Positions 3,914 to 53,875 of a stretch of DNA of 64,000 bases are shown piece by piece (position 1 is the stretch's first letter; every line of letters begins with the position of its first letter). Location: NCBI GenBank assembly GCA_025451045.1, contig JANWLD010000001.1, positions 5,812-69,811 on the forward strand, read 5' to 3'. The notes below the pieces were generated by a model, which was not told the DNA's origin, searched no databases, and was given only the letters and a program-made list of their open reading frames with translations. The translations under genes and the position numbers were made by a program. The DNA comes from Candidatus Saccharimonadales bacterium. Its GTDB lineage: Bacteria > Patescibacteriota > Saccharimonadia > Saccharimonadales > 2-12-FULL-41-12.

Positions 3914-4427
3914 GCGATTGCGGCGGCGGGTTTGTTACGATTCCTTTGTCCCTTAGTACTTTTAGTATCTTTTGCTGAATCTTTTCAGGATGGTGCACTT
4001 CATGAATCACCAAATCACCTACGAAAGTCTGCATCATTATTGTACCAAATCCAAGCACAGTCTGATTGAAGCCGGCGACTTCATAATTAACCATCTGTAC
4101 TTGGTTCAAACCGATATCAACAACGCTTCTGGTCCATAGGCCTTTTTGGGTAATCTGGAGCAAGCGCTGGTCGGTAACAATATAGATACTAAAATACCAG
4201 CTAATGTATGAAGGTATAAAAAACAGCAGGCCAATCACCATACCGATTAGCAGACCGCCAAACAGATAGCTGTACTCGGGTTTGATAAGCGACGGGACAG
4301 TTCCTAAAAGTAATGCTATCAGGCCAATGAGCAAGCCTTTGCGCATAACAATCGGGTGCTTTCTAAAGACAAATAGCAGTTCTTCGTCTTCTAACTGGTC
4401 AGGAAAATGTTTATCTTTACTAGACAT
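3873..4427 (-). CDS. membrane protein with bacterial PH-like (YdbS/YdbT-type) domain
   Basis: The ORF track starts at TTG 4457; ATG 4427 (MSSKDKHF) is preferred. Two TM helices, then a PH-like pattern (YIVTDQRLL...), acidic tail. Confidence 0.5.
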   Translation of the reverse strand: MSSKDKHFPDQLEDEELLFVFRKHPIVMRKGLLIGLIALLLGTVPSLIKPEYSYLFGGLLIGMVIGLLFFIPSYISWYFSIYIVTDQRLLQITQKGLWTRSVVDIGLNQVQMVNYEVAGFNQTVLGFGTIMMQTFVGDLVIHEVHHPEKIQQKILKVLRDKGIVTNPPPQSREADDDEGKNEEA

Positions 4428-4475
4428 ATACAAACAGTTTACTCTAGTGGCTTTCAACCGTAAATAACTAGGGGT

Positions 4476-4569
4476 CCCCGCAAAATGAGGAATATTTTGC
4501 GGGGTGAGGAGAAACGACGCTAGACCCCGCTAAATTTTGGCCACTGGATTGTTAAAATTCAAGCGGGGT
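4476..4569. other. two tandem GC-clamped stem-loops sharing CCCCGC/GCGGGG
   Basis: Hairpin 1 is 4476-4504: CCCCGCAAAAT / ATTTTGCGGGG, 11 bp, 7-nt loop. Hairpin 2 is 4524-4569: ACCCCGCT/AGCGGGGT plus a 6-bp AT extension, 15-nt loop. No U-tract on either strand. Confidence 0.6.
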
Positions 4570-4586: not shown

Positions 4587-4661
4587 TGGCGCCCTTGTCT
4601 GGACTCGAACCAGAATCTAATCCTTAGGAGGGACTTGTTCTATCCGTTGAACTACAAGGGC
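4587..4661 (-). tRNA. tRNA-Arg (anticodon CCT)
   Basis: 75-nt cloverleaf: acceptor GCCCTTG/CAAGGGC, D stem GTTC/GAAC, anticodon stem AGTCC/GGATT with loop CTCCTAA, T stem TCTGG/CCAGA with loop TTCGAGT, discriminator G, encoded CCA. Confidence 0.9.
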
Positions 4662-4686: not shown

Positions 4687-5151
4687 CTAGTTCCGCTCGC
4701 TAGATTCGTAAATATGCCTGTATTCGGATTTGTCATATTCAAACAGCTCACTAGCATCAAAGAACATCTTCACCTCTTCTTTGCCGCGTTGTTTACTGTC
4801 AGAAGCGTGTATCAGGTTGCGGCCGGTACCGATGGCCATATCGCCCCTGATAGTCCCGGCTTCAGCTTCGCGCGGGTTAGTCGCGCCAACGATGATTCGG
4901 ACTGAATTCACGCACTCAAAGCCTTCCCACGCCATTACTACCACTGGTGAGCTCTTCATGAACTCTTCCAAACCAGTGTAAAAGTCTTTTTCAAGGTGTT
5001 CTTTGTAATGTTCCTGCAACAGCTCGCTTGATAAGCTCAGCATTTTTATACCGATGAGCTTCAGCCCTTTTTGTTCCAACCTTCGGATAATTTCACCAAC
5101 TAGTCCTCTCTGCAGAGCGTCGGGCTTGGCGATAATCAATGTTTTTTCCAA
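4687..5151 (-). CDS. ndk: nucleoside diphosphate kinase
   Basis: 154 aa. IIAKPDA and active-site NLIHASDS motifs. TTG start preceded by AAGGA. Confidence 0.9.
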   Translation of the reverse strand: MEKTLIIAKPDALQRGLVGEIIRRLEQKGLKLIGIKMLSLSSELLQEHYKEHLEKDFYTGLEEFMKSSPVVVMAWEGFECVNSVRIIVGATNPREAEAGTIRGDMAIGTGRNLIHASDSKQRGKEEVKMFFDASELFEYDKSEYRHIYESSERN

Positions 5152-5210
5152 ATTTATTTTCCTTGTTTAATTACTGGCAATAATTATAACAGATACAAAA
5201 AAGCGCATGA

Positions 5211-47377: not shown

Positions 47378-47617
47378 CTAAACTTCAAATTTTTCTATGT
47401 GGTCAGTTAAGTTTTTTAAGAATTCTTTCGCCTGTGCTCTCGTGAGCGCAATCCGGCTGACAATATTTTGCTGTTCAGCTCCCGGCATAGCCTGTGAGAA
47501 GTTCAATGTAACGACGTTCTCGTTCGAACCGATAAGATATCCGTCCGCATAAAGAACCGGTACTTTGTTTACATCCACATTAAAATTCACCTTTTTCTGG
47601 TCTTTATCATTAGCCAT
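47378..47617 (-). CDS. DUF3467-like small protein
   Basis: 79 aa. Pattern YADGYLIGSNENVVTLNFSQ...VSRIALTRAQAKEFLKNL fits DUF3467. Confidence 0.5.
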   Translation of the reverse strand: MANDKDQKKVNFNVDVNKVPVLYADGYLIGSNENVVTLNFSQAMPGAEQQNIVSRIALTRAQAKEFLKNLTDHIEKFEV

Positions 47618-47682: not shown

Positions 47683-47766
47683 GCTTGCCTCGTAGTGAGC
47701 CTTCGAGCCTATTTGCCTTTGGCAAATACTATGCGTAGCAACTCGAAGATCTACTACGGGGCTTGC
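47683..47766. repeat. hairpin element copy 1 (MITE-like or structured-RNA candidate)
   Basis: Outer stem 47691-47707 / 47742-47758. Inner perfect hairpin ATTTGCC-TTT-GGCAAAT at 47711-47727. GCTTGC occurs at both ends (47683, 47761). Confidence 0.6.
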
Positions 47767-47793: not shown

Positions 47794-48423
47794 TTGGTAA
47801 TGAATCTTGTTGCTACTGCTGAAAGGGAGCGGGCTAAAGCTGCTCCAGAATCTGCTGAGTCTTTATTTAGACTAGCAAAAGGCAACCGCTTGCTTGCTAT
47901 GTTTAAAAAGTTGGAAGAATTAGATAGGAAGTTCAAAGGCGTGATAATCCCTACCGACAAAGACCGTGCGGCAAGTCCTCGCTTCGTAATAGTTAAAGGC
48001 AAGGAACTACGCCATCAGGCCAGGCATCTTCGTAAAGCTGAACTGGGCGACGAAAACTTTTATGAGAATCTAACCGCTAAAATTCCAAAACTGGCTAAGC
48101 CCAAAAATATCGTCATAGACCATACGGATATAACCCCGAGTGGGAGAGGCCATCATTTATCTATAGGCTTTGACGAAGACAGTACTCAAGCCCTAGACGA
48201 AGAACGATGTGAGGTGCTTACGGCACTGGAAGAAATGGCTGACGTTCCAGACGATGGAGGATTAGATTGGCATCTGTATAATCCTGATATGTTGGCTATG
48301 TTTGTAAGATCTTCCGTACCGAAAAAAGAATCAGCTATCGAAACCGTTGCGAATTATATACAAGCCCATTTACCTATGAAAATTGTACTTGAACCTATAT
48401 ATAACCCCGTGGACCAAGTGTAA
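47794..48423 (+). CDS. hypothetical protein
   Basis: 209-aa ORF, no family recognised. Convergent with polA. Confidence 0.45.
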   Translation: MVMNLVATAERERAKAAPESAESLFRLAKGNRLLAMFKKLEELDRKFKGVIIPTDKDRAASPRFVIVKGKELRHQARHLRKAELGDENFYENLTAKIPKLAKPKNIVIDHTDITPSGRGHHLSIGFDEDSTQALDEERCEVLTALEEMADVPDDGGLDWHLYNPDMLAMFVRSSVPKKESAIETVANYIQAHLPMKIVLEPIYNPVDQV

Positions 48424-51071: not shown

Positions 51072-52013
51072 TTAAGCAGTTGCGGCTTCGTGTAGTAATT
51101 TTGCCGTCAACACAGCTTGGCGCAAACCCGTATATGGATTCTGAAAGTTGGTTGAATCTGCTTTTTGTTCTTCTGTTTTGGCAATCGGGAAACTATCTGT
51201 TCGTATAAATACATCGGGGGCCTCTTCTGAATCGAATTTTGGACTCACATTTGCCTTTATTGCTTGTCTGAACTGAACAGCTAATTGAATTCCGGCGTTG
51301 GCCACCCGTGCGAAAGTTACCGGTATATCTGGTTCAAATAGTTTTTCATAACTTACTTCGTGATCTTCTTCGCTTAATTTAATGCTACGGCTAAAACTAT
51401 CTGCAAGTTTTTCACCGCTATCAGTGTCATAAGAGGTCAAAATTGCTTGAGCTCCGGCTTCGTTTAAAACAGGCAGTACATATCTTGTAGCAAATTCGCT
51501 TTCAGTAGGATATCTGCCATGTTCTACATAAAATTTTTCAACGTTCAGATTAACTTGTTCTGATTTAATTTTGCCCATGACTCTATTACCGGTAACCACA
51601 CGAACCTCCGGCCCAAGGGTGCCTTCGCCGATAGCTTCAGCTACAAGTTTAGTTGTTCGGTCCTGCCAGTTGGCGACCGCGCCGGTTATGACCGTAAATG
51701 CAGGGCCCGGGCCCAAATCACCTATTTTCAAATCCGGCGTCCACAGGCTTCTATCCAAAGGTTTTTGTACGCCGGATCTATCAAGCAAATCAGCTGCTGT
51801 TTCAAGGTCTATAGCATCAACTTCTTCGTTAGCCCCAAGAACTTTATTCTTGCCTAGAACACCTACTAACTTATACATTTCCTGAGGGTCAGGAGCATTA
51901 TCAAGCTCGAAGTTCAACCGTTCGGCAATTTCAGGTATAAGACCGCCGGCCAGCTCATAGACGTTGTCGCCTAGCTCAAAAGTACTAAAGTCTCTCTCTG
52001 CAACTTCACTCAT
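51072..52013 (-). CDS. hypothetical protein
   Basis: 313-aa ORF, acidic, no family recognised. Confidence 0.45.
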   Translation of the reverse strand: MSEVAERDFSTFELGDNVYELAGGLIPEIAERLNFELDNAPDPQEMYKLVGVLGKNKVLGANEEVDAIDLETAADLLDRSGVQKPLDRSLWTPDLKIGDLGPGPAFTVITGAVANWQDRTTKLVAEAIGEGTLGPEVRVVTGNRVMGKIKSEQVNLNVEKFYVEHGRYPTESEFATRYVLPVLNEAGAQAILTSYDTDSGEKLADSFSRSIKLSEEDHEVSYEKLFEPDIPVTFARVANAGIQLAVQFRQAIKANVSPKFDSEEAPDVFIRTDSFPIAKTEEQKADSTNFQNPYTGLRQAVLTAKLLHEAATA

Positions 52014-52061: not shown

Positions 52062-52631
52062 TTATAAGTACTGCCTAAGGTCTTGTTCGATAGTCAATTT
52101 AAGTTTTTCTTTATCGTTGGAATTGTTTTCGATAAACTCGTCGCATAACTTTTTTACCTCGCCCACTGCCAAAGTTGCTTCATCACCGTACACATTCATT
52201 TCATCCTGTTCTTCGCGCAAGAATTCCTCGTAAGTTTTGCTGTCTTCTGCGCTTCGGTTGCGACTGGTTATTCTCTTATACCTAATTTCCGGCTCAGCAT
52301 CTACCCAGACCATCACTCCGCCAAGCCGATGTATTTGTTCAACTTCGCCAATATTGCGAATGCTTGAAATAACAAGGCCTTTGTATTTTTGTGCTTCTGA
52401 ATTGAAAATCTCAATTGCTTTATCAACCAATACGGCCAATCCGAATTCGCGCCGCCATTGGTCGCCAAGCTCACGCATGTTTTCACGTTTTATCGGTTTG
52501 TTTCGTTTTTTTAGCTCATCGCGCAGGATATCAGTAACTGAAACGAACAAGTATCCCCAGTCTTCCTGCAAAATCTGGCCGACCGTATCTTTTCCGCTGC
52601 CGTTCGTCCCGGCAATCCCAATAATCTTCAT
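52062..52631 (-). CDS. P-loop nucleotide/nucleoside kinase-like protein
   Basis: 189 aa. Walker A GIAGTNGSGKDT and the overall size of the dephospho-CoA / dNMP kinase-like folds. Substrate unknown. Confidence 0.55.
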   Translation of the reverse strand: MKIIGIAGTNGSGKDTVGQILQEDWGYLFVSVTDILRDELKKRNKPIKRENMRELGDQWRREFGLAVLVDKAIEIFNSEAQKYKGLVISSIRNIGEVEQIHRLGGVMVWVDAEPEIRYKRITSRNRSAEDSKTYEEFLREEQDEMNVYGDEATLAVGEVKKLCDEFIENNSNDKEKLKLTIEQDLRQYL

Positions 52632-52656: not shown

Positions 52657-52680
52657 TTATTTGATGTAGTCGTGGAGTTT
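52657..52680 (-). repeat. displaced duplicate of the rpoD 3' end
   Basis: Minus strand AAACTCCACGACTACATCAAATAA (KLHDYIK*) versus the real rpoD end AAACTCCACGACTATATAAAATAA (52804-52781). 22/24 identical, and both differences are synonymous. Confidence 0.75.
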
Positions 52681-52776
52681 GCCCAGTAGTGAGCTTTCGT
52701 GGATATCTCCGCCAAGTGGCGGGGATACTTGGCTTTGCACTTGCAAAGCCGCACGAAAGTCTACTACTGGGTTTGC
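52677..52776. repeat. hairpin element copy 2
   Basis: Outer stem 52682-52701 / 52752-52771. Two inner hairpins at 52705-52726 and 52731-52750. GTTTGC at both ends (52677, 52771). Confidence 0.6.
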
Positions 52777-52780
52777 AGGC

Positions 52781-53875
52781 TTATTTTATATAGTCGTGGA
52801 GTTTTTTGGCATCTTTGTGTTTTCTGAGCTTGGCTAACGCTTTGGCTTCAATCTGTCTTATACGCTCGCGGGTAACTGAAAATTCCTGGCCGACTTCTTC
52901 CAGCGTATGGCTTTTGCCATCTTCCAACCCGAAACGCAGCTTCAAAATCTTCTGTTCGCGTTCGGTCAGGCCAGAAAGCATGTCTTTAACATGTTCTTTG
53001 AGCAAACTGCCGGTTGCTGACTCTTCGGGGCTGACGGTGTCCTCGTCCTCGATGAAATCACCCAGCACACTGTCTTCTTCATCATCGCGCACACTGGCAT
53101 CCAGCGAGTGGATATCCTGCTTAATCTTCATGATGTGCTCAACCTTGGCAACATCCATTTCCATCGCTGTAGCGATTTCTTCGTTGGTCGGTTCGCGGTT
53201 AAGTTCTTGGGTCAGTCGCCTCTGAGTCCTGAGCAGTTTATTAATCGTTTCAAACATATGCACCGGAATTCGGATTACCCTAGCCTGATCGGCAATTGCG
53301 CGGGTAATCGCCTGTCTAATCCACCAAGTCGCATAAGTAGAAAATTTAAATCCTTTGTCCGGGTCAAACTTCTCTACTGCGCGAAGTAATCCCGTATTGC
53401 CTTCTTGGATAAGGTCCAAAAGATCCAATCCGCGGCCAACGTAGCGCTTGGCGATACTGACAACTAAGCGCATATTGGCTTCGGCCATCTGGTCTTTTGC
53501 CCGCTTATCACCCGCGACAACTTTTTGAGCTAGGGCCAGTTCTTCATCGGGTTTAAGCAGCGGAATCTTACCGATTTCGCGAAGGTACAAACGAACCGAA
53601 TCATCAGCGATATCATCCATGTATACCTTGTCGTCAAGCTCTAACTCTTCGCCGTCATCACCGGTCCAGTCATCGCTCATACTAACCGCGCTGCCGGTAA
53701 CCTGTATGTTCAAATCCGCGAGTTCGGAATAAAGTGAATCCAAAATTTCGGCGTTTTCCGGAGTTTCCGGAATCTTCTCAAAGATGACGTCCTGGTCAAT
53801 CTTACGGTCTTTTTTAGCTTTTTTAAGTAGTTCCTTTTTAGCTTCTTCCAGCTGTTGCTTCTTGTCTTCCGTCAT
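52781..53875 (-). CDS. rpoD: RNA polymerase primary sigma factor
   Basis: 364 aa. Regions 1.2-4.2 including [19 protein letters not shown] and the region 4 HTH. Confidence 0.95.

Follow-up and report, generated by a model that had tools for sequence, protein, structure and literature searches.

What are the two hairpin-forming sequences that lie in a 64,000-nucleotide stretch of the Candidatus Saccharimonadales bacterium assembly GCA_025451045.1 (contig JANWLD010000001.1, positions 5,812 to 69,811; hereafter the window): a structured RNA, or a mobile piece of DNA? [quoted passage not shown] We consider it probable, at roughly 70%, that both are non-autonomous, MITE-like copies, without an open reading frame (ORF), of a family of small palindromic mobile elements whose full-length kin carry a GIY-YIG nuclease. 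What makes the family notable is that the only gene of these full-length relatives is this tiny nuclease and not a recognised transposase. We found no published description of the hairpin family in the literature searched.

The two hairpins and their family

Both pairs of arms given in the original prediction (47691-47707 with 47742-47758, and 52682-52701 with 52752-52771) are present, and so are two compensatory differences between the inner stems (C:G to T:A and A:T to T:A), one strong interior hairpin in copy 1, which is accompanied by another of 3 bp, and two interior hairpins in copy 2. Read on the + strand, with slashes at the borders of the element, copy 1 runs CTTG/CCTC-GTAGTGAGC-CTTCGAG...CTCGAAG-A-TCTACTAC-GGGG/CTTG and copy 2 runs TTTG/CCCA-GTAGTGAGC-TTTCGTG...CACGAAA-G-TCTACTAC-TGGG/TTTG. 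The termini common to both are CCCN-GTAGTGAGC and TCTACTAC-NGGG, the ends themselves being CCTC...GGGG in copy 1 and CCCA...TGGG in copy 2. A shared block was rightly noticed, although it consists of the 9 nt of GTAGTGAGC and not of AGTAGTGAGC, for which copy 1 reads CGTAGTGAGC. Likewise, the hexamers said to bound the copies, GCTTGC (47683 and 47761) and GTTTGC (52677 and 52771), exist, but the true duplication is of 4 bp and not of 6 bp. The hexamer GCTTGC was seen because G + CTTG + C fits the target preference described below, its extra G and C being the terminal base of the element on one side and the preferred flanking base on the other.

The folding energy of the RNA was -38.1 kcal/mol for copy 1 and -60.9 kcal/mol for copy 2, with z values of -5.4 (RNA) and -6.5 (single-stranded DNA, ssDNA) for the former and -8.7 and -9.2 for the latter; none of 200 shuffles folded as well as the real copy, for both copies and both as RNA and as ssDNA. 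The covariance-model search that had been proposed as a check recovered, when the whole window was scored with the full model and without filters, these two copies only, and further family variants with maintained pairing were found elsewhere. Under model R1, copy 1 scored 64.7 bits (+) and 36.7 bits (-), and copy 2 71.6 bits (+) and 41.2 bits (-). A weak model match at 4476-4504 was rejected as a simple hairpin unrelated to the family; it is a perfect hairpin of 11 bp (CCCCGCAAAAT...ATTTTGCGGGG) at ~85 nt from the tRNA-Arg gene (4587-4661).

The two copies are not a private pair. The pattern GTAGTGAGC-N35-65-TCTACTACNGGG, run on GTDB species genomes, returned 105 stretches from ~57 genomes, some of which hold 10 or more copies, and nearly all matches were labelled Saccharibacteria (the majority) or other Patescibacteria. 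The same pattern gave 0 matches in IMG/VR viral contigs. As far as this search reaches, the family does not extend beyond Patescibacteria (candidate phyla radiation, CPR) and belongs mainly to Saccharibacteria. Left termini read CCCN-GTAGTGAGC and right termini (G/A)TCTACTAC-NGGG, and the two pair with each other apart from a conserved asymmetric block in which TGAG stands opposite TCTA. Features that do not depend on the pattern, namely CCC/GGG ends, an inner stem of 7-9 bp and one or two interior hairpins, are shared by ~90 copies.

In a MAFFT alignment of 91 copies, 98% of the stem cells are paired, against 87.5% with shuffled partners and 38-51% when the pairing register is slid, and double-change stem cells number 152 against 37.5 in shuffles, a value reached by 0 of 500 shuffles. 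These figures bear out the predicted preservation of structure while sequence drifts. Compensatory variants of the outer stem found by the model (GAAG/CTTC, GTGG/CCAC and GCAG/CTGC) retain the TGAG/TCTA block, and the interiors, which have no conserved sequence, fold with a mean z of -3.9.

The MITE-like mobile hairpin considered in the original prediction is supported by the flanks. An exact 4-bp repeat flanks 51 of 106 copies and a 5-bp repeat 9 more (60/106), where ~5 would be expected from randomly paired flanks. The target profile is G/YNNR/C (slashes enclosing the duplicated bases), in which the duplicated bases vary, G is preferred before them and C after them; the site of copy 1, where the right CTTG is followed by C, fits it. 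TCAA/TTGA and CAAG/CTTG make up 14 and 12, respectively, of 50 duplications, with 0.4 expected for each (30-fold enriched). Nested copies were identified at three loci (L058, L068 and L099), and twice a filled site stands beside an empty orthologue in which the duplicated bases occur just once (L054 beside L051, and L089 beside L077). Promoter targeting, for which flanks reading TTGAC, CTTGCA and TATAAT might speak, was rejected, these flanks being now attributed mainly to the G/YNNR/C preference, and promoter scans at the two window copies were at chance.

Differences in presence and absence, also proposed as a check, were found at both window sites. The site of copy 2, between rpoD and a kinase gene, is empty in 89 relatives (9 close and 80 more distant): in three contigs with 92%-identical RpoD the gap between the two genes is just 15 bp, and in other relatives the junction has either a multi-hairpin spacer of another kind or one or three additional genes. 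By the model, the 80 additional rpoD loci from metagenomes (635 kb) contain one element, and zero at the rpoD 3′ end. In the closest relative (L001), polA is directly followed by the DUF3467 gene, and both copy 1 and the 207-amino acid (aa) ORF next to it are absent. When nine orthologous loci were searched by BLAST with both copies, none turned up. In L001, a match of 13 nt (TGCAAGCATGAGC) was considered as the empty site of copy 1 and rejected, since the ORFs beside it lack homology and its E value of 0.88 is not significant.

Some family members stand in particular surroundings. Four Saccharibacteria have the element within the gene for RNase P RNA (rnpB; Rfam RF00010, 260-266 bits), at what we read as the P12 position, in sense orientation in two genomes and antisense in two, with no flanking duplication. 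At two loci (L016 3177-3260 and L106 7737-7800) the terminal GGG of the element overlaps the initial bases of a tRNA gene, and the element thereby abuts the tRNA 5′ end. At L113 a 114-nt segment occurs twice (4339-4452 and 5070-5183), at a distance of 731 bp and upstream of two neighbouring genes; it consists of the element and a downstream promoter-like flank, CTTATGCTTGCA, which recurs in L110 and L067.

Others differ in build. CPR lineages other than Saccharibacteria hold minimal hairpins of 29-32 nt, CCCN-GTAGTGAGC-TTTG-CTCTACTAC-NGGG, which are nested, paired in inverted orientation or placed in a tandem array of 43 bp. One orthologous site with the flanks cagcgTAAA...TAAAataaaacc is occupied by three differing copies (L037 4164-4236, L073 5032-5115 and L101 2603-2672), which are distinguished by a compensatory inner-stem change and by interior hairpins gained, lost or replaced whole; this suggests modular exchange and not point drift. 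Two loci with typical family members are labelled Candidatus Binatia (L037) and Robiginitalea (L069), and the flanks of the former match the Patescibacteria loci L073 and L101. Both are probably CPR contigs that were mis-binned into other metagenome-assembled genomes, and family members may serve to flag such contigs.

Longer relatives with a GIY-YIG nuclease gene

Unseen by the original prediction, the same termini frame a GIY-YIG gene elsewhere. A scan for unpaired ends revealed, at L077 5065-5377, a 313-bp member with the same termini, the target-site duplication TATG and an interior ORF that matches the Pfam family PF01541 GIY-YIG (E = 2.4e-16). In these ~313-bp relatives there is nothing between the termini except a GIY-YIG nuclease ORF of 96-104 aa. 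The protein has 614 homologues at E <= 1e-5. Among the 120 clusters listed, 70 are exactly 104 aa long, 95 start with MPSSELS and 73 end with QKVYY, and these two peptides are the translated arms (ATG CCN AGT AGT GAG CTT TC. and CAG AAA GTC TAC TAC TAG). Since V or M stands right before the conserved FCYVY in 106/116 proteins, an internal GTG/ATG start is also possible.

The catalytic residues (Y, Y, YxG, R, H/N and E) are invariant, and AlphaFold models residues 11-90 with confidence and the ends that the arms encode poorly. Among solved structures, the closest relatives are those of UPF0213 (YhbQ-like; PDB 1zg2 and 1ywl) and Slx1 (PDB 6seh, 7cq2-4 and 4xlg), with profile E values of 1.9e-7 to 6e-3 and a fold probability of 1.0, UvrC being far less close. 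The NCBIfam scan returned only a sub-threshold match, to a group I intron endonuclease. At 96-104 aa the protein is a catalytic domain only, without a DNA-binding domain.

ORF-bearing and ORF-less copies occur together in two genomes (JBEKOJ and PFEG), and one copy of 124 bp, which retains 25/30 bases of the ORF 5′ region, looks like a deletion intermediate. The eight ORF-bearing copies examined are at eight different host genes (fur-like, a 181-aa ORF, a HAD hydrolase gene, tig, a 381-aa ORF, xerC-like, ftsA-like and methyltransferase-like), all on the host start codon, and these sites share only (T)ATG. In 8/8 of them the right-hand copy of the duplication contains the host ATG. TATG is the duplication of 6/7 ORF-bearing copies from Saccharibacteria versus 1/50 ORF-less copies. 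The element ORF is in frame with the left ATG, which could start it, and the stop codon of the element, in the right terminus, either precedes the host ATG by 2 nt or shares bases with it (ATGA). Our reading of the sequences further places a putative -10-like hexamer 6-10 nt upstream of the left ATG, as leaderless genes would have.

In another Patescibacteria lineage, an ORF-bearing copy (L218 1170-1500) has the duplication TGAA, which overlaps the start codon of the host gene; the GIY-YIG stop and the host ATG share bases as ATGA, and relative to the ORF the asymmetric arms are flipped in comparison with the Saccharibacteria copies.

Duplicated gene ends and the window neighbourhood

Copy 2 lies inside a duplicated rpoD 3′ end, which had likewise escaped notice. 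The element splits the downstream copy (ACKLHDYIK-stop) of a 30-bp tandem repeat of this gene end, whose two copies have 5 differences: 2 in the KLHDYIK-stop part, which are synonymous, and 3 upstream of it, which change AKK to ACK. The direct repeat around copy 2 measures 24-30 nt and has a score of 18 against a control maximum of 11, and the second rpoD end is absent in 73/73 relatives that lack the element.

A comparable arrangement was observed at two other loci (L020 1620-1760 on the - strand and L060 3055-3200 on the + strand), where the element lies between a promoter with a mutM pseudo-start (MPELPEV) and a second, complete mutM start; at both, all differences between the paired mutM starts are synonymous. 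As the differences are mainly synonymous, the simplest explanation is that the gene-end copies evolved in separate lineages, each as working coding sequence. Capture of gene ends of this kind has been described for endonuclease genes in fungal mitochondria. It appears, then, that recombination can bring in the element along with part of the gene beside it, and that the element may spread between genomes with such a fragment of a gene end, which would explain the duplicated rpoD 3′ end at copy 2.

Table 1. Positions of the window hairpins, of their neighbours and of copies in other genomes
Feature	Positions	Strand	Remarks
Copy 1, element proper	47688-47761	+	74 bp, no ORF; based on sequence, folds, model R1 and alignment with 90 other family members
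Copy 1, outer stem	47688-47698 with 47750-47761		
Copy 1, inner stem	47701-47707 with 47742-47748		
Copy 1, interior hairpins	47710-47728; 47732-47740		the second small, 3 bp
CTTG target-site duplication, copy 1	left 47684-47687, right 47762-47765		
Copy 2, element proper	52682-52771	+	90 bp, no ORF; based on sequence, folds, inverted repeat I3 and model R1
Copy 2, outer stem	52682-52691 with 52762-52771		
Copy 2, inner stem	52693-52701 with 52752-52760		
Copy 2, interior hairpins	52704-52727; 52730-52751		form a three-way junction
TTTG target-site duplication, copy 2	left 52678-52681, right 52772-52775		
Non-functional second rpoD 3′ end, main part	52657-52681	-	CAAA CTC CAC GAC TAC ATC AAA TAA (..KLHDYIK-stop)
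Non-functional second rpoD 3′ end, first 9 nt	52772-52780	-	GCCTGCAAA on the - strand; across the element from the remainder
Functional last 10 rpoD codons	52781-52810	-	GCC AAA AAA CTC CAC GAC TAT ATA AAA TAA
rpoD (primary sigma factor)	52781-53875	-	copy 2 is 9 nt beyond the stop codon
AAA_18/AAA_17 P-loop kinase gene	52062-52631	-	start 50 nt from copy 2, which sits upstream
DUF3467 gene	47378-47617	-	points away from copy 1; start 70 nt from the element
207-aa ORF	47800-48423	+	no Pfam family; ATG 38 nt past the end of copy 1, same orientation
rnpB-embedded copies	L042 443-518; L070 4658-4735; L056 2299-2380; L084 1760-1842		
Minimal CPR hairpins	L088 4538-4650; L096 2116-2180; L069 4696-4758; L066 5994-6123; L043 5307-5438	- (L088)	

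The window RpoD, for which an exact look-up gave no entry, is 84-95% identical to Candidatus Saccharibacteria proteins, and the genes of the neighbourhood include pnp, rpsO, truB, rpsT, holA, mutM, polA, rpoD and dnaG. Copy 1 is located between a divergently transcribed pair, the DUF3467 gene and the 207-aa ORF, and copy 2 is antisense to both of its neighbours (Table 1). A metagenome scan with the 207-aa protein found no relatives. Among close relatives the stretch of rpoD, the kinase gene, polA and mutM is a hotspot of gene gain and loss (L001 1413-3852; L007 11091-11603; window 51072-52013 and 47800-48423), with a variable content of an M15 peptidase and two unknown ORFs, a 170-aa ORF, or 313-aa and 207-aa ORFs without a family. 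In a relative with 94%-identical RpoD, the junction of rpoD and the kinase gene (L002 11100-11190, and also L003) bears another multi-hairpin element of unrelated sequence, with an outer stem AAGGAGGG...CCTCCCTT and two inner hairpins.

Explanations weighed and comparison with known systems

How such a hairpin may move can be pictured as follows. The termini would fold into a hairpin or cruciform, which the element's own Slx1-like nuclease would recognise by the conserved distorted block; this enzyme would cut at the hairpin base and make a 4-nt staggered cut in a G/YNNR/C target, and host repair and ligation would complete the insertion. ORF-less copies, those of the window included, would owe their mobilisation in trans to a full-length copy at another place in the genome. 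Taken to its end, this would mean a previously unrecognised class of prokaryotic DNA transposon whose sole enzyme is a minimal (~96 aa) Slx1/UPF0213-like GIY-YIG nuclease acting on the hairpin or cruciform of its own ends, a proposal that we make tentatively and hold at somewhat less than even odds. If it is true, the autonomous form (~313 bp) would be among the smallest self-mobilising elements known. The element would then land on the start codons of apparently leaderless genes as a parasite that borrows the initiation and expression signals of its host without killing the host gene, which would stay translationally coupled, and it would shed hairpin-only derivatives, such as the window hairpins, into intergenic DNA and even into RNase P RNA.

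Several points weigh against the preferred reading. Both the connection of the nuclease with movement and, given that tblastn found no GIY-YIG homologue encoded in the 64-kb window, mobilisation in trans there are matters that we infer from the sequences. To our knowledge, a 96-aa GIY-YIG catalytic domain without a DNA-binding domain is unprecedented as a transposase, and known GIY-YIG enzymes give overhangs of 1-2 nt and not of 4 nt. Most ORF-less interiors share just ~18 nt per end with the ORF-bearing forms, and the duplication TATG, near-exclusive to ORF-bearing copies and rare in ORF-less ones, may reflect separate insertion processes or differing selection. The short hairpins of CPR lineages other than Saccharibacteria have no target duplication. 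Covariation from copy to copy may partly mirror the descent of subfamilies instead of selection on pairing, and since 20 bases were fixed by the search pattern, part of their apparent invariance comes from the pattern itself.

Terminal inverted repeats with a 4-bp duplication are, moreover, typical of DDE transposases, and together with the partly palindromic target they make up the classic signature of these enzymes. The main rival explanation, which we consider unlikely although it deserves to be taken seriously, is therefore that the hairpins are ordinary MITEs moved by a conventional, as yet unseen DDE transposase, with the GIY-YIG ORF as a passenger or an invading homing-endonuclease gene. 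Candidates would be IS1380/piggyBac-like, IS701-like and IS5-like elements, whose ends are CC(C)...GG(G) and whose duplications measure 4-5 bp. The window without a GIY-YIG gene and the differing duplicated sequences of ORF-less and ORF-bearing copies would suit such a history. On the other hand, no transposase-bearing form (matching ends 0.5-5 kb apart) was found in ~0.8 Mb around the 105 copies, where the longest interval was the 313 bp of the GIY-YIG form, which is weak evidence as it comes from 8-kb slices per genome. Furthermore, the GIY-YIG ORF exactly fills the space between the termini, and its frame crosses both arms in >90 protein clusters, which speaks for long co-evolution rather than chance cargo.

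Far less probable is a functional structured RNA, be it a small RNA or a cis-regulatory, processing or stabilising element, beside which the flanking repeats would be incidental. The strong stem covariation is what such an RNA would show; the + strand folds better in 67/87 copies, by a mean of 2.6 kcal/mol; placement upstream of a gene in the same orientation is the commoner one (50 versus 25); and copies are tolerated within RNase P RNA. However, the structured RNA that had been offered as one possibility is, as a dedicated gene, not supported, and it finds no family among the Rfam covariance models, which matched only tRNA-Arg in the window at the gathering score and, at E <= 10, gave the hairpins nothing except microRNA and small RNA noise of 12-15 bits. 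Most copies are intergenic in unrelated contexts, in both orientations to their neighbours, with all four arrangements of neighbouring genes present (divergent, 27, more often than convergent, 8), and one and the same rnpB position holds both orientations. Promoter and terminator scans at both window copies were no better than chance. Flank duplications, nesting, empty orthologous sites and the lack of the window sites in 80-plus relatives also argue for the mobile family that we prefer. A secondary, co-opted RNA role of individual copies is possible.

Least probable of all are hairpins of the repetitive extragenic palindromic (REP)/REPIN type, moved single-stranded by a single-copy RAYT (Y1 HUH) transposase, which would account for GTAG near the 5′ end on both strands, for imperfect palindromes with a conserved mismatch block, for hairpin-only versions of 29-32 nt and for the strand asymmetry in folding, but whose insertion is not known to leave a fixed target duplication, in conflict with 60/106 copies, and for which no Y1 gene was seen between or beside copies (in the 8-kb slices and the window, without a Pfam survey of all ORFs), the gene between the arms being GIY-YIG.

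CPR bacteria have tiny, streamlined genomes that are thought to be poor in mobile elements. In genomes of 0.8 Mb the family accounts for as many as a dozen copies, which sit in promoters, between essential genes and within RNase P RNA, and the covariance model and the census can be used for repeat masking in CPR assemblies. Should the GIY-YIG nuclease move the element, a new class of enzyme would join the DDE, HUH, tyrosine and serine recombinase and Cas1 enzymes, and an enzyme of ~96 aa with ends of roughly 20 bp would be attractive as a minimal DNA-insertion tool.

Among known systems, bacterial MITEs (Correia/CREE of Neisseria, RUP of Streptococcus pneumoniae, ERIC and MITEAba12) are, like the family, small, mostly intergenic and without a transposase ORF. 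Common to both are terminal inverted repeats able to form a long hairpin, a target duplication of fixed length, several dispersed copies per genome with presence and absence differences between relatives, and nested insertions. Of five marks of a MITE, the window copies display four, as they are small and without an ORF, have terminal inverted repeats and a fixed-length duplication, and belong to a dispersed family with presence and absence differences. As for the fifth, a larger element with the same termini exists, yet it encodes a GIY-YIG nuclease of 96-104 aa and not a recognised transposase of the DDE kind. The family also differs from MITEs in its interior, which is a covarying stem with variable hairpins (three-way junction) and not decayed insertion-sequence DNA, in the conserved non-complementary block of its termini, and, by the pattern search, in its confinement to CPR bacteria.

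Free-standing GIY-YIG homing endonuclease genes are represented by Seg and Mob of phage T4 and by GIY-YIG ORFs in fungal mitochondrial genes, which bring a duplicate of the host gene end. Such genes and the family are alike as selfish units whose sole gene is a GIY-YIG nuclease and which adjoin or enter host genes without destroying them, and in duplicated host gene termini whose differences are mostly or only synonymous. Unlike them, the family has a protein reduced to the catalytic domain, terminal inverted repeats with a 4-bp duplication, eight host genes instead of one cognate site, and abundant ORF-less derivatives at unrelated sites; an intact GIY-YIG domain is present in the full-length relatives and absent from the window copies. 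UPF0213 and Slx1 are cellular repair enzymes for which, in contrast to the element nuclease, neither a frame of inverted repeats nor mobility is known. By analogy, the cutting of branched DNA (flaps, stem-loops and junctions) by Slx1 would fit an enzyme acting on a hairpin or cruciform.

Three further systems were set aside on their defining features. With REP/REPIN-RAYT the family shares short imperfect palindromes and, likely, a low-copy protein partner recognising a folded strand, but it has a target duplication and its GIY-YIG partner lies inside the arms instead of being a REP-flanked Y1 HUH gene. Integron attC sites are similar in keeping structure while sequence varies, with imperfect hairpins, conserved unpaired features and a variable terminal structure that may be branched. 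The attC boxes R′′/R′ (RYYYAAC / GTTRRRY) do not match the ends of either copy (TTGCC-CCAGTAG / CTACTGG-GTTTGCA and GCTTGCC-TCGTAG / CTACGGG-GCTTGCA), no cassette arrays and no integrase were found nearby, and target-site duplications are present. IS200/IS605 elements were rejected on the target duplication and on the lack of TnpA between the ends.

A survey of insertions into the rRNA genes of CPR bacteria (Tsurumaki et al., bioRxiv 10.1101/2024.02.27.582315) describes non-intron insertions that contain GIY-YIG ORFs, as well as many ORF-less insertions shorter than 200 bp, with no mention of inverted repeats, hairpins or direct repeats. The hairpin element was found here within another structured RNA gene, rnpB, and the non-intron insertions of CPR rRNA genes, which are so far unexplained, may be accounted for by the same family.

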